The translations under genes and the position numbers were made by a program. A stretch of 64,000 nucleotides of DNA. It comes from a virus. Its lineage: Duplodnaviria; Caudoviricetes. Location of the stretch: positions 1-64,000 of the IMG/VR virus record IMGVR_UViG_3300012943_000004, one strand, 5' to 3'. Under the pieces are notes generated by a model that saw only the letters and a list, made by a program, of their open reading frames with translations, ran no database searches and was not told where the DNA came from. Below are positions 6,181-63,972 of the stretch, in pieces (the stretch's first letter is position 1; every line of letters starts with the position of its first letter).

Positions 6181-6229
6181 AAAAAGCAATACCCTCGACC
6201 TGCCCACACTTCAGGTCGAGGGTATTGCT
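6181..6229. terminator. intrinsic terminator at the convergence of the + operon and the - strand late operon
   Basis: Perfect 18-bp stem AGCAATACCCTCGACCTG (6185-6202) / CAGGTCGAGGGTATTGCT (6212-6229); upstream A-tract gives a U-tail on the - strand. Confidence 0.9.
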
Positions 6230-6239
6230 GCTTGTGGAG

Positions 6240-40377: not shown

Positions 40378-40413
40378 AAGAAACGCCCCCTCGCCGCAGA
40401 GGAGGCGTTTCTT
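40378..40413. terminator. terminator-like hairpin in the divergent control region
   Basis: AAGAAACGCCCCCTC / GAGGAGGCGTTTCTT, 14 of 15 paired, with T-runs on both strands. Confidence 0.6.
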
Positions 40414-45428: not shown

Positions 45429-45455
45429 ACTGGATTAGTTTCTAGAAAAACCAAG

Positions 45456-45512
45456 AATAGGCTGGTTTCTGGATAGAATCTGTCTAGAAACCAGCCTATT
45501 TCTTTGTCTTTT
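45456..45512 (+). terminator. intrinsic terminator ending the replication operon
   Basis: AATAGGCTGGTTTCT (45456-45470) / AGAAACCAGCCTATT (45486-45500) followed by TCTTTGTCTTTTT. Confidence 0.85.
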
Positions 45513-46139: not shown

Positions 46140-47098
46140 ATATCGTCTACGGTTACGTCAACATGCATGTCATAATTAGTATCTTATAAAATCGACTGTA
46201 TTTTCCCAATCCCTGGGTGACAGGATTAGCTAGTATACGGGACGTCTTTGGGGTCTTTAGAATGAGAGAACTTTGGCGAAAATATTCTGTGCACAGAAGA
46301 GTGGCTAAGTGTTGCGCGCGACCGGGGGGTCGGGATTTTATCTCAAACCGGACAGATCGCCCATCTCGGTCATTCGAGGGCATTTCGGACATGCAGCCGT
46401 AACGGGACAGACGTACTATCCGGCCCGATAATGCCCATTATCGGGCCGGATCGGGCCATCTTTGTGCAATCTCGGACAATTCGGACTTCGAACGCGCGTT
46501 CTAGTTCGCGCCACGCCACGCCACGGGATCATGTCGGACATGTCCGACTTTGTCCATCTTTGTCCTATAGTTTACGCAAAAGATATGATAAGATAACCAA
46601 CCGCGCGCGCCGATCGTTCGATGTCCGTTTCGTACCACTCTGTACTAGATGCCCGTTTTGCTATACATCGCACCTTTTTGTCACAGTTTACGGTAGTTCG
46701 GCTAGGTCGGGACTATTCGAACAACTATTCGAGAGACAAAACGGACTTTCCACCCATAACGGATTCGGACATTTCGCCACATAATTTCGGGGCAACTCGG
46801 ACATACCGGACTTCCCACACTAAACGGACTCGTACGTCTGTTCGAATAAAACCAAACCGTGTCCGTTTTGTCTCGAACTGTCCGTTTTGTCTTCGAACAC
46901 AATGTCACGGTTGCATAACATCGCGTGTCCGTTTTGCCCTACTTTGCACCAGTACGACATACAACGTCCCTCTTTGTACCGAGTTAGGCTGGTCGCGTGC
47001 GACCAACCGAATCCGTCCGAAAGAGCGCCTACGCGCGCGCCGATCTAACGCGCGCGCCGATCCACGAAAACGGACTTTCTACCCGAAAGGCACAAACC

Positions 47099-47395
47099 AT
47101 GACAACCGTCTCAACACCGACCCATGCGGACATTCTGTCCTACATGGGTCAGACCGTGACAATCCGTTACATGAAGACATATAACGGACTCGGCGCGACA
47201 CAACACACCGTAACGGGCTACATGACCAACTCGGACATTGACGACATCCCGTCTGTAATCGTCCTAGACAGCCCAAACGGGACTTGGTTGCCATTAGCGG
47301 CCATTCTCGACATCAAGCCCGAATCGGACATCTCGGACGGGCCTTCATGGTTCGATGGATGGTCCGACGACGGTTCGGTGTTCGTCGGCATCTAG
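47099..47395 (+). CDS. hypothetical protein
   Basis: ATG at 47099 with GAAAGG RBS; first ORF after the non-coding block. Confidence 0.75.
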   Translation: MTTVSTPTHADILSYMGQTVTIRYMKTYNGLGATQHTVTGYMTNSDIDDIPSVIVLDSPNGTWLPLAAILDIKPESDISDGPSWFDGWSDDGSVFVGI

Positions 47396-47500
47396 GTCGC
47401 GCGCGTGGCGCCGAACCCGCCAAAACGGACTTTCGGCGCCTAACGGACGATCTAGCCAAACCCGGCCAGAACGCCACAATCCACCTGAAAGGTGCGAATC

Positions 47501-48259
47501 ATGTCGGAACAGACAATCTCCCCGGAATCGACCGAATCGGCCGAATCGACCGAATCGACCGAAACCGCCCAGGTCGACCCAAAGGCCGCATGGGCGGCAT
47601 TCGTCGCAGACCTGCACAACATGGACATCTCGGACATCACCGACCGAATCACCGCGCGCTACGGCGACGCCGACCGATCCGGCAAGGCCCGAATCCGGGC
47701 ATCGGTGGCGGACCTACGGGACGCCGCCATCGAATCGGGTGACCTGATCCGGGCGATGGTCTACGTCAACCTGTCGAAAACCCTCAAGTCCGATTCGTCC
47801 AAGAAGTCCGAAATCGACCCGAACGTCTGGGTTGTCGCGAGAGTCGCAACCCTACGGTTGGCGGCCGACCTGTTGGAATCCGGGGCATACGGTCCAACAG
47901 CCGGAACCGTCACCGCGCAACCGTTGGACGAAAACGGACAGATCGTCCTTTCCGCCCAGATCATCGCAGACGCCACAATCATGGCATCCCAGGCAATCGT
48001 GACGAAGCGGGGCGATGTACCAGATTTCATCGCATTCGCCATGAACAACCTCGAAGCGGACGTTTGGCACAAAGTGTCCGCAATCGGGCGGATCGACCAG
48101 AACGGATATTCGCCATCATCTGGTGCAATCTCCGCATCCATCGCAACTCTCCGCGAATCCGGCAAACTGGACGAAATGGGACTTTCCTACACGGACAGCC
48201 CGAACGTCGCACTACGTCGCAACTCGGACGACACGGACAACGCGCCTGAATCGGACTAA
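47501..48259 (+). CDS. hypothetical protein, paralog of 54581-55531, C-terminal wHTH-like
   Basis: GAAAGG RBS; 9-bp (EST) repeats at the N-terminus; PSSGAISA motif shared with 54581-55531. Confidence 0.8.
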   Translation: MSEQTISPESTESAESTESTETAQVDPKAAWAAFVADLHNMDISDITDRITARYGDADRSGKARIRASVADLRDAAIESGDLIRAMVYVNLSKTLKSDSSKKSEIDPNVWVVARVATLRLAADLLESGAYGPTAGTVTAQPLDENGQIVLSAQIIADATIMASQAIVTKRGDVPDFIAFAMNNLEADVWHKVSAIGRIDQNGYSPSSGAISASIATLRESGKLDEMGLSYTDSPNVALRRNSDDTDNAPESD

Positions 48260-48276
48260 CCCGACACGCGACTACC

Positions 48277-48311
48277 CGAACCGCCTACCGTTCCCAACGG
48301 TAGGCGGTTCG
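48277..48311 (+). terminator. 16-bp perfect hairpin after the 47501 gene
   Basis: CGAACCGCCTACCGTT-ccc-AACGGTAGGCGGTTCG. Confidence 0.65.
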
Positions 48312-48721
48312 TCGCTTCCTATGCCACGTGGCACGCGCTAGGCGCCGATCTAACGGGCCAACAGCCATAGCGGGTACGCGGATACCCGCCACGGTAAAGA
48401 GGCCCGTAAAACGGCACCTAGCGCGTGCCACGTGGCGCGCCGCTAGCGGCGCGCGTCGCCCGATCCGGCCTAGCCGCAATCCAGACAAAACGGACTTTCC
48501 GGCCGTACCGTGACAAATCGGTACAAAACAGTCACATCCACCTTTCTAGCCCATTCAGGTCAAAACGGACAGTCGTTCGTAGACCTGAATGGGCTAGAAA
48601 GTGGGACGTTGGCGCAAAGTCGCCCTGTTCCACACAGGTTAGCCCTTGAGTCTGGCTAACCGAAATAAACCTGGGTCCACACGGATTCAGGTCCATTCTC
48701 GTTTTTAGGAGGCAATCTTTC

Positions 48722-48982
48722 ATGCCACGGTTCGAATACGAGGTGCAGGATCAGCTCGTTGGGATCTTGCAGTTCTACGCTCCCACAGGCGCCGAGCAGG
48801 CGCTCGTCTCGCAGATGGTCTGGGACATGTTCCAAGACATCGAAACTGGCGGCGACCGCCAGGTGGTTATCCGCAAGCTCGTCGGCGTTCTGCACGACGG
48901 TCTGCAGCACGGAAACTGGCCGTGGACACAGTACACGGTCACCGACCCCACCGACCCCGACCAGAACGACCCCGACGACTGA
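48722..48982 (+). CDS. hypothetical protein
   Basis: AGGAGG RBS; 86 aa. Confidence 0.75.
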   Translation: MPRFEYEVQDQLVGILQFYAPTGAEQALVSQMVWDMFQDIETGGDRQVVIRKLVGVLHDGLQHGNWPWTQYTVTDPTDPDQNDPDD

Positions 48983-48991
48983 ACCGATCTA

Positions 48992-49033
48992 GCCATAGCC
49001 CGCCAGGTTTGAAACAACCTGGCGGGCTACGGC
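48992..49033 (+). promoter_or_regulatory. conserved intergenic hairpin, copy 1 (CCATAG...GGTT-GAAA-AACC...CTACGG)
   Basis: ~19-bp stem; recurs at 49640 and 51045. Confidence 0.75.
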
Positions 49034-49079
49034 TGTATCGTATACAGTCGGAACCAACCGAGCTTTAGGAGGCTCCAGA

Positions 49080-49418
49080 ATGGCAGAATTCGAGGTGTTG
49101 CGCGAGGTATGGCGCATCACAGAGTACCGTAACGGCGATGTCTACCGTACTGAGTACGTCGAGGACAGATGGTCCGACAGCGGCGTCTTCGGTAGGCCGG
49201 ACGACGACGACCAGGATCTGATCTGGGTTACCAAGTCCGACCCCAACGTGCAGGTCATTCGCAGGAAGGTCGACCCGACAACAGTCCTAGTCGACTGTGG
49301 TGGCGACTTCACCTGGGTCAATCACCTTCGAGAGCGGGATGGCACGCAGGGCAACTGCTATCGGTGCGGCGAGATCGTCCTGTGGGACACCGATGAGCGC
49401 GCCTGGGATCACTCATGA
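49080..49418 (+). CDS. hypothetical protein
   Basis: AGGAGG RBS; C-terminal CYRC. Confidence 0.75.
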   Translation: MAEFEVLREVWRITEYRNGDVYRTEYVEDRWSDSGVFGRPDDDDQDLIWVTKSDPNVQVIRRKVDPTTVLVDCGGDFTWVNHLRERDGTQGNCYRCGEIVLWDTDERAWDHS

Positions 49419-49633
49419 GCAGGCGCCCTGCACGTCCGCACAGGAAACTGACCACCGACCAGGCGATCATGTTGCATCGTTCTGCGGTCGCGGCTAACGA
49501 ACGGAAGCGTGACTTTGTCGGCCGTGAGTGGCCGTACGAAGAAGAGCTGATGTTCCGTGCCGAGGACGGCGACCAGGCTGCCCTCGAGTACATGGAAGAG
49601 CACCTGGCTCCCTGGATGACACCTGCCAGCTAG
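49415..49633 (+). CDS. hypothetical protein
   Basis: ATGA coupling; 72 aa. Confidence 0.65.
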   Translation: MSRRPARPHRKLTTDQAIMLHRSAVAANERKRDFVGREWPYEEELMFRAEDGDQAALEYMEEHLAPWMTPAS

Positions 49634-49639
49634 CTCCCG

Positions 49640-49679
49640 CCATAGTCTGTCGGGTTAGAAATAACCTGGCAGGCTATGG
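49640..49679 (+). promoter_or_regulatory. conserved intergenic hairpin, copy 2
   Basis: CCATAGTCTGTCGGGTTA-GAAA-TAACCTGGCAGGCTATGG; differences from copy 1 are mostly G.U-compatible. Confidence 0.75.
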
Positions 49680-49727
49680 GTGCGCTATCTGTTCACCCAT
49701 TCGAATCAAGAGCTATAGGAGGCTCGC

Positions 49728-49940
49728 ATGAAGATCCGAAAGGTCACCTTCAGTACGCCGTTCGGCGAGAAAACGGAAAAGATCCGCGTTCTCTCGCACA
49801 ACGAGAGTATGCCGCCAGGATACTGGCGGGAGTTCGGTATCGTCCGAGGCGACTGCGGCTACGGCTGCAAGGTCTATCGTCGCTTCGACACAGGCTCCCT
49901 CATCGTGTGCCACAACTCCAGCTACGGCTGCAGCGCATGA
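49728..49940 (+). CDS. hypothetical protein
   Basis: AGGAGG RBS; 70 aa. Confidence 0.7.
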   Translation: MKIRKVTFSTPFGEKTEKIRVLSHNESMPPGYWREFGIVRGDCGYGCKVYRRFDTGSLIVCHNSSYGCSA

Positions 49941-50278
49941 CACACTACTCGATCCTTCTCGACGAGATTTCTCGCGGGGAATATGACCTCGACCTCGACC
50001 GCATCGAAGAGATGATCCGGTCCCGCAAGAAGGCCTTGGCGTATGACGCCACAGCCCGACTCGAGATTGGCGACACGTTCGTTGTCAAGAACTGCTCCCC
50101 GAAATATTGGGAGGGAGTCCGGGTCAAGTTCGTCATGCATGACGGCGCCTGGCTCGTGTGCCTGGTTGACAGCTGGTACACGGTCAATGGAAAGTACAAG
50201 AAGGGCGACCGCGTGAGGTTCCGCCCGGAGCACGTGTCAGAGATCGTCAAGTTCGCAGATCAGCCGGAGCCGAGATGA
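49937..50278 (+). CDS. hypothetical protein (SH3-like C-half)
   Basis: ATGA overlap at 49937; LEIGDTFVVKN...V.VKFV. Confidence 0.7.
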   Translation: MTHYSILLDEISRGEYDLDLDRIEEMIRSRKKALAYDATARLEIGDTFVVKNCSPKYWEGVRVKFVMHDGAWLVCLVDSWYTVNGKYKKGDRVRFRPEHVSEIVKFADQPEPR

Positions 50279-50385
50279 TCGGCTGGCTGTTCTTCATCGT
50301 TCTTTCGGTATGGCTCCCTGTGGCCGTACTTCACGTCCGTTGGTCACTCAACGGCACCTACCAGAAATGGGGTAAGAAGTCATGA
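50275..50385 (+). CDS. small single-TM protein (36 aa)
   Basis: MIGWLFFIVLSVWLPVAVL...; ATGA coupling at both ends. Confidence 0.55.
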   Translation: MIGWLFFIVLSVWLPVAVLHVRWSLNGTYQKWGKKS

Positions 50386-50798
50386 AGGTCCGTCTGACTC
50401 CGTTCACCAAGACGAGCTGTTCGGTTCCGATCTGCTCGTCCGTCGCATTGTGGAGGTTGACTTCTGGCGCGACTGACGTCGCGCGCCTCGATGCCTGTCT
50501 CTGCAGTCGACACGCCGACGAGATCTATCACTGGAACAAAAAACAAGTCGAGCGAGCCAGGATCCAGCTCGAGCGAGACAGGCTGCTAGCAAACAGCACG
50601 CACCAGGTGCTCTGGAACGGCAAACTGATCACGAACCTGTACATGTCCGAGGATGCAGCTGTCGGCTACGCTCAGGGTTTCATGCAGGCGCTCTTCGAGA
50701 CCCTCGATCCCGACGCGAGTGGCTATCCGAACATCGAGCTGATCGACATCAAAGACGAGGCGTCGATCGCCTACATGGATGTCGAGCTCATGCCATGA
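50382..50798 (+). CDS. hypothetical protein
   Basis: 138 aa; Cys/His motifs; coupled. Confidence 0.65.
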   Translation: MKVRLTPFTKTSCSVPICSSVALWRLTSGATDVARLDACLCSRHADEIYHWNKKQVERARIQLERDRLLANSTHQVLWNGKLITNLYMSEDAAVGYAQGFMQALFETLDPDASGYPNIELIDIKDEASIAYMDVELMP

Positions 50799-51034
50799 TC
50801 AGCTCTCGGGAAGTCATGGTCGGCGTGCCGACTGTCGCCGTGCCGGAAGGTGGAACCTATTCCGACACAGACGGCACGAAGCTCGCCACCTGCGAACAAT
50901 GCGGAGTTGAGATCAAACTCTGCCACTTCGAATGGCGGCATCAGCTGACCGGAGTCCGGCGCTGTTCAGAGCGAAACAAGATCCACCGTCGCGCGGTGAT
51001 GATCGTTCAAGAATCCAACCTGACCGCGATCTGA
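50795..51034 (+). CDS. hypothetical protein
   Basis: 79 aa; CEQC..CH. Confidence 0.6.
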   Translation: MISSREVMVGVPTVAVPEGGTYSDTDGTKLATCEQCGVEIKLCHFEWRHQLTGVRRCSERNKIHRRAVMIVQESNLTAI

Positions 51035-51044
51035 TCAAGACTCA

Positions 51045-51085
51045 CCATAGTCTGGCAGGTTTGAAAAAAACCTGCCAGTCTACGG
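51045..51085 (+). promoter_or_regulatory. conserved intergenic hairpin, copy 3
   Basis: CCATAGTCTGGCAGGTTT-GAAAA-AAACCTGCCAGTCTACGG; compensatory C-G to G-C swap relative to copy 1. Confidence 0.75.
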
Positions 51086-51126
51086 GTATCTTGCCCGGAA
51101 TCAACAAGAGCTGGGAGGCTCAAAAG

Positions 51127-51642
51127 ATGAAGAGGATTGTTCGTCTCAACGATAGGTACCTCTGCGAGAGTACCTCCGAGACCTGCACCAGTCGACCTGA
51201 CCATGTGGCGAGTTACCTTCTGCTCGCGCCTCGCGCGCACTACGTCTGCAAGGACGGCTTCGTGGAGTTCTTCCTGTCCGTCAACCAGACCATCGCTATG
51301 CAGATCGGCTCGTTCCGCGACTACAGCAACGATCGAGGCGAGTACGTCAGGCCTCGTGAGTCCAACGTCAGGCCCGACGCCGACGCGCAGAAGTGTTCCT
51401 GCGGGACTGAGATCGTCGTCTGGCAGAAGTCGGAGGACGATCACTACGTCTGGGCCGTGCATCAAGGCGGAACCCGCAGCAACGTCGGGTTCTGTCCAGA
51501 GGTCAACGGCCTGCGCGCCGCCAAGAAGATGGCCGGAGCGTACCTGACTACGTTCGTCTGTCAGTGGCAAGGCAGAAACTACAGCACCATCACAGGCAAG
51601 CTGGTGTCGCTCGTGGACGGCGCCTGGCGGGAGGTAGCATGA
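51127..51642 (+). CDS. hypothetical protein
   Basis: ATG at 51127 with GGGAGG RBS (shorter than the ORF-track start). Confidence 0.65.
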   Translation: MKRIVRLNDRYLCESTSETCTSRPDHVASYLLLAPRAHYVCKDGFVEFFLSVNQTIAMQIGSFRDYSNDRGEYVRPRESNVRPDADAQKCSCGTEIVVWQKSEDDHYVWAVHQGGTRSNVGFCPEVNGLRAAKKMAGAYLTTFVCQWQGRNYSTITGKLVSLVDGAWREVA

Positions 51643-52337: not shown

Positions 52338-52571
52338 ATGATTCGTTCAGAATACTCGACGTACACCAACGGAGAACGTATCCATCATGGAGATTCTCTC
52401 GAGGAGGCAGTTCGCATCTGGAACGACCAGACTCACGGTATGCCTGCGCCAGCAGGTGGAGTCAAGGTCGAGAGCTTCAACACTGAGCCTGGTGTCCTGG
52501 TGCGCGTTGACTGGATTCTTTACGTCCGAAAGAACGGCTCGGTCTACCTGAACCCCGGAATCAAGTCCTAA
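52338..52571 (+). CDS. hypothetical protein
   Basis: AAGGAG RBS. Confidence 0.7.
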   Translation: MIRSEYSTYTNGERIHHGDSLEEAVRIWNDQTHGMPAPAGGVKVESFNTEPGVLVRVDWILYVRKNGSVYLNPGIKS

Positions 52572-52584
52572 GGAGGCAAGTCTC

Positions 52585-52740
52585 ATGCCAGAACGGTGTC
52601 CAGTCTGTGGCGAGTACTCTGACTACTGTCAGGGTCATGGCGAGATCGATGATCCGATCGGTCACGCAGTCATGCTCAAGCACGATCAGGGAGATCACTC
52701 TGAGTGTGCATTCCCGAAAGAAATCTGCGAGGAAGGTTAA
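52585..52740 (+). CDS. small Cys/His-rich protein (51 aa)
   Basis: AAGGAGG RBS; MPERCPVCGEYSDYCQGHG...; below the ORF-track cutoff. Confidence 0.65.
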   Translation: MPERCPVCGEYSDYCQGHGEIDDPIGHAVMLKHDQGDHSECAFPKEICEEG

Positions 52741-52743
52741 GTC

Positions 52744-53109
52744 ATGGCAATATTCAGGCTAGTAATCGAGGTCAAGGCAGACAATTCGGATCAGGCTATG
52801 AGTCGAGTTAAGCGCGAATGCGTGAAGATCATCAGTACGGTCGAAGTCAGGCCACCGCTCACTCTCGTTAGATTCTTCAACGATGTTCACAAGGATCTTT
52901 CTGAGCCTTCTGTATGGCGACTCGGACAGCGTTACTTCAACACGCTGTATAGGCTGCGTCCTGACTTCGCCAACAAGATCCGTAGCACCGAGGCCGATTG
53001 TTTCTTTGACGACCGAAAGATCGGCGCGTTTATCACCAAGCTTCAGCTCCTGATCGCTGCGGAGAGGGACGAAAGTGCGACGTTGGCGCAAAGGCCACCT
53101 TCGGACTGA
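52744..53109 (+). CDS. hypothetical protein
   Basis: 121 aa; RLGQRYFNTL...RP...IRSTEADCFF pattern of small phage proteins. Confidence 0.7.
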   Translation: MAIFRLVIEVKADNSDQAMSRVKRECVKIISTVEVRPPLTLVRFFNDVHKDLSEPSVWRLGQRYFNTLYRLRPDFANKIRSTEADCFFDDRKIGAFITKLQLLIAAERDESATLAQRPPSD

Positions 53110-55958: not shown

Positions 55959-56795
55959 ATGGCTATCAAGTGCGGTAACTGTACGCAGTATCACGACACC
56001 ATTCAAGATGTCCGAAAGTGCTGCGTTGGCGCAAAGTCTGTTTTGTCTACCGACCAGACAGTCGTCCTCGTACGCCCGGAGCCTCCTGTCGCTCCGTACG
56101 TGCCTGAGTTCCAGATCTATCCAGGCCGACACAAGAGGTACACCTTCAACCGACCCCAAGGGCCTCCGAGTCAGCGTCAGTTGTCCTGGTACGAGGATCT
56201 CGGCGGCGACCCCGAGTGGGCGGCGACAGAGTTGTCCTGCCAGGAGCTGGCCGACCGGATCACTGACCGATTGAACCGCAGGGACGCTGGCGTGGACATG
56301 GCTGGCGATGCCGTCGTGACCACCACAAGCGCGCCTGTAGTGTTCGGTGACCGAACGCGCAACACGACTAAAGTGCCCCTGGTGATGCTCCGGGAGATCC
56401 CTGATGGGTACTACGCAGCACAGATGGATACGACGCAGCCTTGGCAGTTTCTGCGCGTAAGTCGGCCAAAGAAGAATAAACTGGCGGGCTGCATCAAGAT
56501 CCAGTCGCAGCACAGCGATGTTCTCAAGAACATCATGCTGGTCTACCCTGACGACTCGCTCGCGGTGTTCGACAGGTCGTACGAAGATGCGATCCTTCTG
56601 TCGGCACTCGACCCGGTGACTGCGCATATCGCCTATGGTCGAAAGATGGGCTACTGCTGCTGCTGCGGCAAGCAGCTCACTGACCCGCGCTCTCGCTACT
56701 ATGGTATCGGACCAGACTGCGAGAAGCGCAACGAACTCATCATCATTCGCACCAACGAGACAGACGGGCCTTACGTCCCTGGTGACGATGAGTAA
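55959..56795 (+). CDS. DUF6011-like protein
   Basis: C-terminal CCCCGKQLTDPRSRYYGIGPDC; N-terminal CGNC...H; AGGAG RBS. Confidence 0.8.
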   Translation: MAIKCGNCTQYHDTIQDVRKCCVGAKSVLSTDQTVVLVRPEPPVAPYVPEFQIYPGRHKRYTFNRPQGPPSQRQLSWYEDLGGDPEWAATELSCQELADRITDRLNRRDAGVDMAGDAVVTTTSAPVVFGDRTRNTTKVPLVMLREIPDGYYAAQMDTTQPWQFLRVSRPKKNKLAGCIKIQSQHSDVLKNIMLVYPDDSLAVFDRSYEDAILLSALDPVTAHIAYGRKMGYCCCCGKQLTDPRSRYYGIGPDCEKRNELIIIRTNETDGPYVPGDDE

Positions 56796-61194: not shown

Positions 61195-63972
61195 ATGTCA
61201 ACAGATGTTTTTAGGTCAGATCAAGCGATAGACCTAACTCAAGCTCGCGCACGCGAGGCGGTCCGTAAGTTCCGGCCCATGCAGGCTGGACTTACGGGCT
61301 TTGCGCGTGCGCTCACAGGGCGAAACGTCACAGTCGAACTCGCTGTCGGGATACCTCGAACCGATGGGAAGAGGATTTACTACCATCCTCCCATCGCTCT
61401 GGGTGACAACCATACTCACGTCAGGAGTCTCTGTAACAAGCGTGATCCAGAGACGTTAGTCCTGAAGTGCAAGGCCTGTGATGTTCACGAAGAAATCATG
61501 GTGGACATCTACCATGAGATCGGGCATATCGCAGGCGGCTCATTCGAGAAGCCGTCACAAGAAGATATCGACGTGATGATTAAGGCCTCAATCGACGAGC
61601 GCGGCTCGAAGTACTCGAAGCTGGTTCAGGACGCCCTTAAGCAGAGGCAGACTCAAGCTGGTTACGGCTACATCTCAGTGAGTTCTCTACTGAGTGAGTA
61701 CATGCCGATTCTTGTGAACGTTCTCGAGGACTGTCGAGTCGACGTTGCTATGCATCGCGCTCGCAAGGGCACAAAGATCATGTTTGACTCGCAGACTCAG
61801 AAGTTGTTCCGCGACGGCAAGGAAGCTGACGACGGCACTATTCTTCACTGGATCGACAGGCCCGTCAATCATCAGGCGGTAATCGGAATCCTGCTGATTG
61901 CCTGCAAGTACAAGTACGACGGCTGGCTTTTGCCGGAAATCGAGGAGATGCTCAAAGATGAAGAACTCAACAGAATTGTCCGACGAATCGACTCGGCAAC
62001 CCGAGCCAAAGACGCCTATCGGCTCGCCTTTCCGGTTCTCGACCGACTTCGGGAACTTGGGTATTGTAAGCTCCCTGAAGACCCTATCCAGGATGAGCCC
62101 GAAGATGAGCCTGAAGAGTCAGGCGAGCCTGGTGAATCTGGAGAGTCAAGTCAGGAAGAGTCTGATGAAAGTGGATCGTTGGATGAAAGTGGCGATCCAG
62201 GCCCTGCGTCAGAAGATGGCTCAGGTTCTTCTGGATCTCCTGAGTCCGATCCTGGAGAAGAATCTGCGTCTGAAGAAGGCGATGACTCCACTGATGGTTC
62301 GCCTGGAGATGGCAGCGAGTCCTCTGATGATTCTTCGGATAGTAGCGATGGATCTGGGAGTGGAGAGTCAGATCCTGACGGTGATGCTGGATCGTCAGAC
62401 GGCAGCGGTACTGAAAGTGGAAGAAACGATTCGTCAAACGAAGAACAGGAGCAGGTAGATGGCACAGATAGTGACTCGGTATCTCCAGGATCTGTCGATG
62501 GTGAGGGATCTCCGTCCGTGGAGGGACGCGGCGCCGGAGGCACAGCAGATGAATCTCCTCAGTCCGGGAGCTCGCAGCGAGCGCCGGAAGGTAGTGATCC
62601 TGGGGAGGATTCAGAAGAGGGGAGAGCCGACTCGTTACATCAAGGTGACGAAGATGGAGCACCATGCGGAAGTCCAGATCAAGCTGGGTCCGGAGGTGGA
62701 GCTGGTGACGGTAACGAGCTCGTACTGGAAGGATCCAGCGATGAGGCTGTCCCTGGACGACACGACGAGAGCGGCGAGCCAGATGGTGAGGGAGATCGCG
62801 GAAGCGGAAATGGCCAGGAGGATTCTGGCAGATCTGAACAGGCATCTGAACAAGCATCTGAACTAGACCCTGTTGAGTCTGGCGAGGACCGCGGGATGGG
62901 CGGCGTTCAGACTAATGCTGCGGACGGCGGAAGAGCTGCTGATCTGAATGCAGAGATCAAGGTCTTTGCGCATCACGATCTGGACTTCAGTAACATAACA
63001 CCTGAAGATCATGGTTCGTCCGCCGCCGAGGAAGCTGCGATGGAAGTTGCAATCATGCAGAGTCTGTACTTTGAGACTGCATCGCAGAACGTTGCAGGAG
63101 TCAGGATCCATAAGTTCGGTCAGCCAATATTAGACAGTAATGGCGACATCCTTTCCGAGGGCTGGCCCGTGCCTGGAATGTCACAGGCGACTTTAGTCAG
63201 GAAGGGCTTCTCGTGCGACATGTCTGTAGACGAGGCTGTAATCGGCCCGATGCTTCTGCAAATGCGAGCAGTCTTTGCCGAGAACCGCAGAGCTGAAATG
63301 CTTCGCAACCAGCGGTCAGGCAGAGTTCGCACCAAGAGTTTGGGCCGAAGGTTTGCGATCCAGGACGACAGGCTCTTCCAGAAGAAGCGGATTCCCGGCA
63401 AGAGATCCTACGGAGCGATTCTTGGAATCGACATCTCAGGGTCGACAACTGGTACGAACGTTATCCTTGCCAAGCGTGCCGCTAAGTATCAGGCAGAGCT
63501 ATTCTTTAGAACAGGCGTAGAGTTTGCTATCTACGCCCATACTGCATGGCGAACCACACAGAAGTCTACTCTTGGCGATTCGTCGCTGTGGCTGGACATG
63601 TACGAGATCAAGCGATTCGACGAACTCTGGAACGAGGACACGAAGAGCCGTCTCGACTCCATTGGACCAGACGCGCTTAACCTTGACGGACACGGTTTGG
63701 AGTATTACCGTAAAGTCATCGAAAAGACGAGCTACACGGATCTCCTTATCGAGTATTTCACTGACGGCGAGATGCCTGCAGCTAATCACGACGAGGAGCT
63801 CGAGATCCTTCAGCGCGAAATCAAGGTCTGTGCGCAGAAGAAGATTCATCTAGTCGGCGTAGGCATCCATACTGATTCTCCGATTCGTCACGGCTTGGAT
63901 ACGGTTCAGATCGATAGTGAAAATGATCTCAAGAAAGTCATTACTCATATCGGTCAGTTATTCATGCGCTGA
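61195..63972 (+). CDS. vWA-domain protein (CobT/CbbO-like): HExxH N-terminal domain, long acidic linker, C-terminal vWA
   Basis: YHEIGH and NVLEDCRVD; ~290-aa D/E/S/G-rich linker; MIDAS DISGS ... HT ... FTDG; AAGGAG RBS. Confidence 0.85.
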   Translation: MSTDVFRSDQAIDLTQARAREAVRKFRPMQAGLTGFARALTGRNVTVELAVGIPRTDGKRIYYHPPIALGDNHTHVRSLCNKRDPETLVLKCKACDVHEEIMVDIYHEIGHIAGGSFEKPSQEDIDVMIKASIDERGSKYSKLVQDALKQRQTQAGYGYISVSSLLSEYMPILVNVLEDCRVDVAMHRARKGTKIMFDSQTQKLFRDGKEADDGTILHWIDRPVNHQAVIGILLIACKYKYDGWLLPEIEEMLKDEELNRIVRRIDSATRAKDAYRLAFPVLDRLRELGYCKLPEDPIQDEPEDEPEESGEPGESGESSQEESDESGSLDESGDPGPASEDGSGSSGSPESDPGEESASEEGDDSTDGSPGDGSESSDDSSDSSDGSGSGESDPDGDAGSSDGSGTESGRNDSSNEEQEQVDGTDSDSVSPGSVDGEGSPSVEGRGAGGTADESPQSGSSQRAPEGSDPGEDSEEGRADSLHQGDEDGAPCGSPDQAGSGGGAGDGNELVLEGSSDEAVPGRHDESGEPDGEGDRGSGNGQEDSGRSEQASEQASELDPVESGEDRGMGGVQTNAADGGRAADLNAEIKVFAHHDLDFSNITPEDHGSSAAEEAAMEVAIMQSLYFETASQNVAGVRIHKFGQPILDSNGDILSEGWPVPGMSQATLVRKGFSCDMSVDEAVIGPMLLQMRAVFAENRRAEMLRNQRSGRVRTKSLGRRFAIQDDRLFQKKRIPGKRSYGAILGIDISGSTTGTNVILAKRAAKYQAELFFRTGVEFAIYAHTAWRTTQKSTLGDSSLWLDMYEIKRFDELWNEDTKSRLDSIGPDALNLDGHGLEYYRKVIEKTSYTDLLIEYFTDGEMPAANHDEELEILQREIKVCAQKKIHLVGVGIHTDSPIRHGLDTVQIDSENDLKKVITHIGQLFMR

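Follow-up and report, generated by a model that had tools for sequence, protein, structure and literature searches.

A hairpin-and-leader cassette present in three copies between gene blocks of an uncultured soil phage collinear with Rhodococcus phage ReqiDocB7

The 77,828-bp genome of an uncultured soil phage, collinear with that of Rhodococcus phage ReqiDocB7, carries between its gene blocks three copies of a spacer cassette of about 95 bases that combines a hairpin with a ribosome-binding leader. In each copy a stop codon is followed, after 6–10 nt, by an 18-bp hairpin, then by GAAYCAA, GAGCT, GGAGGCTC and an ATG. Repeated intergenic cassettes are known from other phages (the PeSLs, SAS/ESAS, and those of ReqiDocB7 and its relatives) and their mechanisms are partly understood. 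The three-copy set is a variant of these regulatory cassettes that has not been described previously, a natural one from which the promoter part is missing and in which a hairpin with RNA-like covariation and a conserved leader remain. The reading that I favor, with a probability of about 0.45, is that the cassettes act as intercistronic punctuation of a polycistronic sense-strand mRNA, the hairpin shielding a 3' end or flagging a site of processing and the leader restarting translation.

Table 1. Positions of the cassette elements and of two related features in the 64,000-nucleotide stretch analysed (the window).
Feature	Position	Strand	Description	Score or energy
Hairpin, copy 1	48993–49032	+	17-bp core stem, 6-nt loop UGAAAC; begins 10 nt past TGA of gene 48722–48982	71.8 bits
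Extended helix, copy 1	48985–49040		about 23 bp via flanking pairs	-40.4 kcal/mol
Leader, copy 1	49051–49082	+	GAACCAA 49051–57, GAGCT 49060–64, GGAGGCTC 49068–75, ATG 49080	
Hairpin, copy 2	49640–49679	+	18-bp stem, three G.U, GAAA tetraloop; begins 6 nt past TAG of gene 49415–49633	70.0 bits
Outer helix, copy 2	49627–49691		takes in TAG stop codon of gene 49415–49633	
Leader, copy 2	49703–49730	+	GAATCAA 49703–09, GAGCT 49710–14, GGAGGCTC 49718–25, ATG 49728	
Hairpin, copy 3	51045–51085	+	18-position stem, A.C and U.U mismatches, 5-nt loop; begins 10 nt past TGA of gene 50795–51034	69.9 bits
Outer helix, copy 3	51036–51093		CAAGA/UCUUG	-30.9 kcal/mol
Leader, copy 3	51098–51129	+	GAATCAA 51098–104, GAGCT 51108–12, GGAGGCTC 51114–21, ATG 51127	
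Fourth, partial leader	52558–52587	+	GAATCAA-N7-GGAGGC-N7-ATG, start 52585	
Neighboring hairpin	48365–48394	+	tip of a 114-nt long hairpin, 48323–48436	

The leader pattern GAGCT-N0-4-GGAGGCTC occurs three times in the window against 0.01 expected from shuffles, and the hairpin pattern CCATAG-N25-40-CTAYGG marks the same three gaps against 0.07 expected. An earlier note on this DNA had reported one stem in these gaps, differing between copies by a compensatory swap, G.U wobbles, a T.T mismatch and a recurring basal A.C mismatch, and followed by the conserved leader ahead of the three starts. Both observations were borne out, the former in an 18-pair alignment, and neither pattern is found elsewhere in the whole genome. 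A covariance model (R1) run over the whole genome with filters off returned no further copy, leaving the set of covarying homologues as it was. The shorter relative that had been placed at 48365–48394 finds no support: its match to the covariance model lies on the minus strand and scores only 13.6 bits (E 0.15), and the 9-mer that it shares with copy 1 has dozens of chance equivalents. The partial leader at 52558 shares CCCGGAATCAA with copy 3 and has neither the hairpin nor the GAGCT/CTC flanks, its box falling within the final codons of gene 52338–52571. Since the leader is thus present once without the hairpin, the two modules are separable.

Standard pairs fill 92.6% of the cells of the 18-pair stem alignment, against 28–50% when the partner strand is slid. 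Three pairs are changed on both sides: columns 13/37 (CG/UA), columns 15/35 (CG/UG/GC) and the loop-closing pair. Mispairs comprise the wobbles of copy 2, the U.U of copy 3 and the A.C, which occupies the same basal position in copies 1 and 3. Observed covariation values were reached by 12–40 of 500 shuffles; covariation is therefore suggested, not proven, by three related copies, and is weak because they come from one metagenomic genome. Palindrome symmetry can also persist through template switching, without selection. The predicted folds are stable (-30.9 to -40.4 kcal/mol, z-scores -6.5 to -10.4). Copy 2 is strand-biased, with -38.2 kcal/mol for the sense and -24.8 kcal/mol for the antisense strand, whereas the antisense strand folds slightly better in copies 1 and 3, where the A.C becomes G.U. 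In each copy the non-homologous flanks can also pair and make the helix longer (shuffle p 0.014, 0.17 and 0.066; Fisher 0.0075), bringing the conserved core of 17–18 bp to about 23–27 bp with small internal mismatches. The description of the loops as GAAA-capped, GNRA-type structures holds for the tetraloop of copy 2 but not for the larger loops of copies 1 and 3. Conservation is mosaic. Constant throughout are the stem base (CCAUAG/CUAYGG), the stem tip (GGUU..AACC) with the GAAA of the loop, the GAAYCAA box and the Shine-Dalgarno block; mid-stem, only the pairing is kept, and the 22–30-nt spacer can hardly be aligned. This pattern favors selection on blocks over recent neutral duplication.

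The leader is 25–29 nt long and consists of the A/C-rich GAAYCAA box and, 7–10 nt further on, a perfect GGAGG Shine-Dalgarno sequence; the GGAGGCTC motif begins after a gap of 1–3 nt from GAGCT and ends 2–5 nt 5' of the ATG in all three copies. The flanks GAGCT and CTC lie outside the Shine-Dalgarno sequence. They could pair as GAGCU/GGCUC in a 5-bp mini-hairpin holding the AGGA of the Shine-Dalgarno sequence in its loop; with z-scores of -0.85 to -1.25 it is not individually significant, and it would, if anything, partly mask the Shine-Dalgarno sequence. Perfect GGAGG sites before plausible starts are rare genome-wide, and six of them cluster at 48.7–52.6 kb. None of the sites antisense to GAAYCAA is meaningfully positioned.

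All three cassettes lie within 2.1 kb, inside a block of small genes without assigned function (48.7–53.1 kb), as direct repeats 650–1400 bp apart. This region is syntenic with the cassette region of ReqiDocB7; it is hypervariable and without homologues in that phage, and its flanks are collinear. There are 2–5 coupled genes per cassette, and the genes inside each block overlap by ATGA. Those flanking the cassettes are mutually unrelated and of unassigned function: no paralogy was found among them, and no protein relatives were found in IMG/VR or in a set of 5.8 billion proteins. The atlas matches of gene 49937 are phage hypothetical clusters only. Calling these genes early, as had been done, was an assumption on timing.

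Searches with the region or with single cassettes (megablast and blastn) against 50,697 phage records gave nothing relevant, and a portal query of IMG/VR gave no close relative. The exact hairpin pattern has 0 matches in IMG/VR. The leader pattern has 120 single matches there, mostly coding; all lack both the GAAYCAA box and a hairpin further upstream, and they were discarded as chance. Nine loci in metagenome contigs carry the hairpin pattern, all low-GC and unrelated. Two loci with a superficial likeness (L126 and L131) coincide with the beginning of a 420-aa ORF on the reverse strand and were judged to be chance as well. Among 185,579 prokaryote species genomes the hairpin pattern has one match, unrelated and judged chance, so the hairpin is not a host REP family. 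In the sequencing-run search the only matching run, and no RNA run among them, was that of the probable source DNA sample; among its contigs one is identical and none shows joints, which bears on neither recombination nor expression. Rfam gave nothing over the cassettes at E<=1 and only a tRNA in the window.

Promoter and terminator signals were scored. With SigA-type hexamers, the best -35/-10 pairs of the three cassettes reach 7, 6 and 9 of 12; their positions are not homologous, and the two hexamers are 18–20 nt apart. The ReqiDocB7 cassettes reach 10 of 12 at 17-nt spacing by the same scoring. The promoter scan listed none at the cassettes, and no -35/-10 pair is position-conserved across the three copies. 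The distance from hairpin to ATG is 41–48 nt, in which a full sigma-70/SigA promoter with a Shine-Dalgarno leader has no room. The hairpin tails (CTGTATCG, GTGCGCTA and GTATCTTG) have no U-tract, and the terminator scan did not list the hairpins as intrinsic terminators. Clear SigA-type promoters are present in the comparable cassettes of ReqiDocB7 and GMA3, and a non-canonical promoter may exist in those studied here.

The covarying stem, the sense bias of copy 2, the missing U-tract and the lack of a fitting promoter favor a role at the RNA level, as the earlier note had proposed, but nothing points specifically to RNase III, its precedent. In the punctuation reading, a long mRNA would run through the small-gene block of this ReqiDocB7-like actinophage; with no U-tract and no promoter downstream, RNA polymerase would largely have to read through. 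The hairpin, just behind the stop of a translationally coupled block, would be left by an endonucleolytic cut as a protective 3' end on the segment upstream. An enzyme of the RNase III type would cut in the stem, host RNase E in the single-stranded spacer; the hairpin may double as a weak attenuator. The leader would let translation start strongly and independently at the first gene of each block, and the downstream genes would be coupled through their ATGA overlaps. Transcription through the cassettes, cleavage, stabilization and the translational effect I infer from this anatomy. As to the nuclease, RNase III is possible but unsupported, and a cut in the spacer by RNase E is equally plausible; the mycobacterial RNase E cleaves 5' of C.

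Alternatively, each cassette might work at the DNA level as a terminator-promoter-RBS unit of the PeSL, ESAS/SAS or ReqiDocB7 type, with the palindrome as terminator and/or dimer operator and an unrecognised promoter, phage-specific or of another host sigma specificity, driving each block. The genome position and the gap of about 95 nt match those of the ReqiDocB7 cassettes with their TTGACA-17-TAGACT, and GMA3 and Jumbo also have units of a hairpin and promoter-like sequences. In ESAS, 17-bp inverted repeats separated by 4–13 bp precede a conserved RBS motif (PMC3203893); the current interpretation is that of a SigA promoter containing an inverted repeat (PMC11373665). A TANNNT hexamer lies just past the hairpin in copy 1 (TATCGT) and copy 3 (TATCTT), but copy 2 has none there. 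The absence of a position-conserved hexamer pair and the shortness of the gap also weigh against this alternative. Moreover, the half-sites vary between copies and are matched within each copy, which one sequence-specific dimer is unlikely to tolerate, and the fourth leader has no palindrome. I regard a DNA-level unit as unlikely.

Somewhat less probable still is cleavage of the hairpins by RNase III as in T7 early mRNA, yielding block-sized mRNAs that keep a stabilizing 3' hairpin. The sites are intercistronic, mutually similar and near-perfect duplexes, and with their flanking pairs the helices are long. RNase III substrates in E. coli and T7 need roughly two helical turns; I know of no defined substrate rules for the actinobacterial enzyme. 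However, the conserved core is just 17–18 bp, the outer helices are individually weak (p 0.014–0.17), and no homologous sites were found in other phages (IMG/VR and the 50,697 phage records). This possibility is in any case a subset of the punctuation explanation, not independent of it.

A more elaborate version, which I consider doubtful, is a small phage-specific RNA regulon in which a dedicated protein would recognize the hairpin and cut the transcript into gene-block mRNAs, with the Shine-Dalgarno mini-hairpin as a second operator. The phage could encode this protein, as an endoribonuclease or an RNA-binding protein, or the stem base and tip could recruit an RNase of the host. Very doubtful is a purely translational operator regulon, in which a phage or host RNA-binding protein on the hairpin and/or the mini-hairpin would co-regulate three (or four) genes. 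Sequence is kept at the stem base, tip and loop, where a protein would read it, and the Shine-Dalgarno sequence sits in a conserved mini-hairpin like those of the Cluster K and EF SAS (PMC3203893, PMC7302621). Yet no candidate RNA-binding protein was identified, the large hairpin lies 27–38 nt from the Shine-Dalgarno motif, and the fourth leader has neither hairpin nor mini-hairpin flanks.

There is a comparably slim chance that the cassettes are an evolutionary by-product, a generic spacer of a hairpin and a good RBS that was copied by recombination and serves chiefly as homologous linker for gene gain and loss, with no role other than that of an ordinary hairpin and Shine-Dalgarno sequence between genes. 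For the recombination cassette envisaged earlier there is a genuine precedent, the PeSLs of T4-type phages (PMC2839356), which mediate such gene shuffling (PMC2839356, PMC4122927); the copies are confined to the hypervariable stretch between collinear flanks, and the genome has about 10 other strong intergenic hairpins unrelated to that of the cassette. On the other hand, block-wise conservation and compensated stem changes point to constraint, and direct repeats so close together would be quickly lost unless useful; a by-product is also compatible with, not exclusive of, a regulatory role. Integron attC sites were dropped for want of any defining sequence feature. So was the suggested CRISPR-repeat mimic, which finds no support in the prokaryote genomes and Rfam families searched; the cassette hairpin has 40 nt and an 18-bp stem, against 28–37 nt and a short stem in a CRISPR repeat.

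If the set is indeed a variant without the promoter part, the post-transcriptional functions of such cassettes are here separated from the transcriptional one. To my knowledge, the function of the SAS motif has been unexplained since 2011. The regulon, if true, would do in an actinophage what punctuation by RNase III does in T7, with a SAS-like motif as its basis. The element is compact (about 95 nt) and testable in Gordonia, Rhodococcus or Mycobacterium reporters. Its practical value is modest: in actinobacterial expression it might serve as an insulator and as a part for strong initiation of translation, and in the annotation of related metagenomic phages as a marker of gene-block boundaries.

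Among known systems, REP hairpins such as that of malE-malF belong to enterobacterial operons, occur in hundreds of copies and have their own transposase. Like the cassette hairpin they are stable, lack a U-tract and lie just past a stop codon, where they can shield the preceding cistron against 3' exonucleases and bring about differential expression; they differ in being a host-genome family. The RNase III sites of T7 early mRNA are marked by a characteristic internal loop, and their cuts have been mapped experimentally. They too are mutually similar intercistronic hairpins, and a cut here would likewise leave a stabilizing 3' hairpin, but the predicted core duplex of the cassettes is 17–18 bp.

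The cassettes share with ESAS the arrangement of long arms (17–18 bp here, about 17 bp there) around a short gap (loops of 4–6 nt against 4–13 bp). ESAS differ in their SigA-like -35/-10 elements 17–18 bp apart (PMC11373665), none consistent being found here, in arm departures that do not support RNA pairing (PMC3203893), which here are compensated or wobble, and in a palindrome that adjoins the SAS instead of lying upstream at a distance. With SAS the leader shares a ribosome-binding motif conserved beyond 16S complementarity just before the start codon (PMC3203893, PMC7302621), a position 2–9 nt before the start of genes behind gaps >50 bp, and short inverted flanks round AGGA(G): GGG-ATAGGAG-CCC against GAGCT-ATAGGAGG-CTC here. 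In Cluster K and EF these flanks do not pair with 16S rRNA (PMC3203893, PMC7302621). SAS number 10–19 copies per genome, against 3–4 here, and membership is defined by GGGATAGGAGCCC with at most 2 mismatches; at <=3 mismatches this consensus has 9 matches against 15.9 expected, none at the cassettes.

The PeSL of T4-type phages is a composite of about 100 bp between genes without assigned function in hyperplastic regions (PMC2839356, PMC4122927). A stable stem-loop, the Shine-Dalgarno sequence and start of the next gene, the hyperplastic setting and the potential of the repeats as homologous recombination sites are common to both. PeSLs differ by their strong sigma-70 early promoter, by a stem-loop that has been tested as a terminator and in most cases overlaps the promoter boxes or lies between them, and by hosts and phage lineages unrelated to those here. 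ReqiDocB7 itself has, in my own reading of the record, about nine cassettes at 63.5–68.4 kb, upstream of gp088–gp098. A similarity of the leaders noticed by eye was rejected, since nhmmer profiles of the ReqiDocB7 cassettes, run against this genome, gave no match at its cassettes, and there is no detectable sequence homology between the two sets. The ReqiDocB7 cassettes further differ in their promoter, which contains an 8-bp inverted repeat and directly follows the hairpin, in a hairpin-to-ATG distance of about 62 nt, and in serving one gene each rather than 2–5 coupled genes. What the two have in common is a syntenic position in a collinear genome, gaps (about 88–103 nt there) between small genes, and the order of stop codon, covarying hairpin and conserved leader, whose extended ribosome-binding motif closes with ..GAGGCTAGA(A/C)ATG.

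The three intergenic gaps singled out in the earlier note share one two-part element, a hairpin followed by a ribosome-binding leader, on the + strand of 3/3 gaps. This repetition is real and well above chance: pattern scans located GAGCT-N0-4-GGAGGCTC, the leader pattern, at three places (0.01 expected) and the hairpin frame CCATAG-N25-40-CTAYGG at the same three (0.07 expected). Fuzzy scans of the whole genome yielded no additional cassette. The covariance-model search that had been proposed for finding further copies, using a model built on the three cassettes and run with filters off, returned only the original three (70–72 bits, against 16 bits for the next + strand match) and no additional hairpin in the whole genome. 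A match to an Rfam family, envisaged as a possible refutation, was absent over the cassettes even at E<=1. The source record (77,828 bp with direct terminal repeats, of which the window covers bases 1–64000) comes from a soil metagenome; the element is limited to this one metagenomic genome, with three copies and one partial copy, which restricts both certainty and reach.

Coordinates and properties of the cassettes and of the features compared with them (flank pairs with shuffle p value; energies in kcal/mol)
Feature	Coordinates	Strand	Length or content	Flank pairs (p)	Extended fold energy, + strand; − strand
Cassette gap 1	48983-49079	+	97 nt	CGAU/AUCG + UAGCC/GGCUG (0.014)	-40.4; -44.9
Cassette gap 2	49634-49727	+	94 nt	CAG.CUAG/CUAU.CUG, upstream stop codon included (0.17)	-38.2; -24.8
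Cassette gap 3	51035-51126	+	92 nt	CAAGA/UCUUG (0.066)	-30.9; -33.6
Fourth leader	52558-52587	+	GAATCAA-N7-GGAGGC-N7-ATG, before 51-codon Cys-rich gene 52585-52740		
Hairpin in 48260-48721 non-coding stretch	48277-48311				
Long imperfect hairpin	48323-48436		114 nt; -91 kcal/mol over 141 nt		
Hairpin in 48260-48721 non-coding stretch	48534-48609				
ReqiDocB7 cassettes (record reading)	63.5-68.4 kb of record (L136:13500-18400)	−			

Aligned over the three copies, the hairpin is an 18-pair helix with 92.6% standard pairs, a figure that fell to 28–50% when, as a control, the 3' partner was slid by one to three columns. Twelve pairs are invariant, two show a one-sided change (G.U), and in three (CG/UA, CG/UG/GC and the loop-closing AU/UA) both partners are altered. 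The stem changes are as first described, namely compensatory pairs, G.U (three pairs in copy 2), one U.U in copy 3 and an A.C at the third pair common to copies 1 and 3. The GAAA cap ascribed to every copy stands for copy 2, a true tetraloop, and not for copies 1 and 3, the loops of which have 6 and 5 nt. The stem base CCAUAG/CUAYGG and the tip GGUU/AACC are invariant, all stem changes being confined to the seven positions between them. The flanks are dissimilar and nonetheless pair, extending the helices to roughly 23–27 bp (flank shuffles, p values combined by Fisher's method = 0.0075). Fold energy discriminates between the strands in copy 2 only, in favour of the sense strand.

Hairpin and leader are separated by a spacer of 22–30 nt that is barely alignable between copies. 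The conserved part of the leader starts at GAAY|CAA, 25–29 nt upstream of ATG, which is about the 5' UTR length predicted for the Rhodococcus phage ReqiDocB7; GAGCT and GGAGGCTC follow, with the ATG 2–5 nt downstream. A 5-bp GAGCU/GGCUC mini-hairpin, with the AGGA of the Shine-Dalgarno motif in its loop, is possible (-6.5 to -6.8 kcal/mol) and is the centroid structure in 3/3 copies, the individual folds not being significant (z -0.85 to -1.25). GAAYCAA-N5-14-GGAGG has exactly four + strand matches in the genome: the three cassette leaders and a fourth leader, whose GAATCAA box falls within the coding sequence upstream. The latter has CCCGGAATCAA in common with copy 3 and possesses neither the hairpin nor the GAGCT/CTC flanks. 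It follows that the hairpin and the leader are modules that can be separated. A perfect GGAGG before a plausible start is rare genome-wide, and six instances cluster at 48.7–52.6 kb.

Within the cassette-bounded blocks, genes overlap by ATGA (49415/49418, 49937/49940, 50275/50278, 50382/50385, 50795/50798 and 51639/51642), so that every cassette stands ahead of the opening gene in a block whose translation is coupled. The label "early" attached to these genes is abandoned. The flanking proteins gave no informative Pfam/PHROG family (one unannotated PHROG match, two sub-threshold Pfam matches), and neither homologues nor paralogy among one another were found. The proteins encoded downstream of cassettes 1 and 3 have in common a CxxCGxEIVxW motif at the C-terminus (window 49365-49400 and 51400-51435) that looks like a zinc ribbon; they are otherwise unrelated, with 58% identity across 12 residues (E 1.3).

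Collinearity with ReqiDocB7 extends over the whole genome, with amino-acid identities of 25–52%, and takes in terminase, portal, capsid, tail, primase, helicase, AAA-ATPase and vWA protein. The large terminase subunit, ~50% identical to the versions of ReqiDocB7, Jumbo, Trogglehumper and GMA3, is about equidistant (45–52%) from ReqiDocB7 and from Gordonia phages including Jumbo and GMA3, and the phage looks like a new, lower-GC (48–59%) lineage of the Gordonia/Rhodococcus phage supergroup. The 44-54.5 kb stretch holding the cassettes, between the helicase module and the homologues of gp081 and the AAA-ATPase, showed no homologues in the genome comparison. Ahead of the first gene of the array lies a 460-nt non-coding stretch (48260-48721) with three hairpins, a possible ncRNA, origin or regulatory region; the shorter relative of the cassette hairpin once placed at 48365-48394 is no longer retained. 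A four-copy direct repeat, GAAAGTG.GACGTTGGCGCAAAG (48597-48626, 53071-53100, 56014-56043 and 62167-62196), with one copy just before the array's first gene and another just before the tRNA, may serve as a phage promoter or as the site of a regulator. Seven (A)CAAAACGGACTTTCC-like repeats occupy 46734-48510, in the 2.3-kb upstream stretch.

The syntenic ReqiDocB7 interval (gp088–gp098, gaps of 88–103 nt) contains nine intergenic cassettes between small genes. In the direction of transcription, a typical gap comprises the stop codon, then GCGCGTTTGC, a hairpin that varies in sequence between copies while its pairing is kept, a promoter in which TTGACA and TAGACT stand 17 nt apart with the inverted repeat TGACATTC..GAATGTCA between them, and a conserved leader whose last bases are ..GAGTGAGGCTAGA(A/C)ATG. 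Read as functional parts, the gap holds a terminator or hairpin, a promoter of SigA type and a conserved cassette for ribosome binding. Comparable units occur in GMA3 and Jumbo, so that this kind of element is lineage-typical. The ReqiDocB7 cassettes have architecture and genomic place in common with those described here but no detectable sequence likeness, and profiles made from them did not detect the three cassettes in this genome.

These relatives lend support to the idea that the element is a promoter or operator cassette acting at the DNA level. In the present copies, however, no promoter was recognised. A -35/-10 scan gave 10/12 at 17-nt spacing for ReqiDocB7, in contrast to 7, 6 and 9/12 at spacings of 18–20 for the three copies, whose best pairs lie at non-corresponding positions; behind the hairpin of copy 2 there is no TANNNT hexamer. 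A full promoter takes up ~36 nt as far as the start site, and the part of the leader that runs from the Shine-Dalgarno motif up to ATG a further 17–20 nt; the two do not fit together in the 41–48 nt between hairpin and ATG. The stem changes, which match within each copy and differ between copies, also speak against a DNA-level role, which is rather unlikely.

Most likely, the cassette acts on mRNA, a reasonable though unproven reading. If no promoter lies behind the hairpins, the downstream genes are expressed by read-through only, and the hairpins therefore cannot be efficient terminators. None of the three is followed by a U-tract (terminator scan and tail sequences), in contrast to other hairpins of the genome (45453, 40378, 6181). 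Those strong hairpins, flanked by A-runs and T-runs at the ends of gene arms (6181-6233, 40378-40413, 45453-45503), look like canonical, partly bidirectional terminators. The cassette hairpin would close one gene block as a 3'-end protector, processing mark or weak attenuator, and the leader would let translation of the next block start strongly and on its own. RNase III, a candidate nuclease, would be compatible with the lengthened helices (23–27 bp), and RNase E would be equally well grounded for a Corynebacteriales-type host; the details specific to RNase III lack support. If the element were a translational operator bound by an RNA-binding protein, the conserved stem base and tip and the SAS-like flanks would be accounted for; a protein of this kind is not evident, however, and this reading is quite improbable. 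A mostly evolutionary role as recombination linker, shown for the promoter-early stem-loops (PeSLs) of T4-type phages (PMC2839356, PMC4122927), is compatible with any of these readings. Mimicry of a CRISPR repeat is very unlikely.

Two low-GC metagenome contigs (L126:232-272 and L131:238-277) carry a hairpin of the same frame, CCATAGT..GGTTAGAAAT..TCTACGG, with A.C and T.T mismatches as in the phage hairpins. This hairpin coincides in part with the start codon of a 420-aa ORF on the reverse strand that gave no Pfam match, in a unit with AAAGTCCA(C/G)TTTT repeats at both ends that resembles an insertion-sequence-like element. Given the low GC and the overlap with that start, the likeness was judged to be chance.

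The main value of the cassettes is that they constitute a promoter-less natural variant of the actinophage cassettes in such regions, useful for separating their post-transcriptional from their transcriptional roles. They are not assigned to any of the PeSL, SAS/ESAS or T7 RNase III site families. T7 RNase III sites are alike in position and logic. PeSLs are likewise composites of stem-loop and Shine-Dalgarno motif between genes of unknown function, but the sigma-70 promoter that defines them is not a feature of the present element. The start-associated sequences and their extended forms (SAS/ESAS) of Cluster K and Cluster EF actinophages similarly combine a ribosome-binding motif having short inverted flanks with upstream inverted repeats of 17 bp. 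Their sequence and copy number are different, and ESAS hold a promoter and lack RNA-type covariation, the reverse of the arrangement found here (PMC3203893, PMC7302621, PMC11373665).
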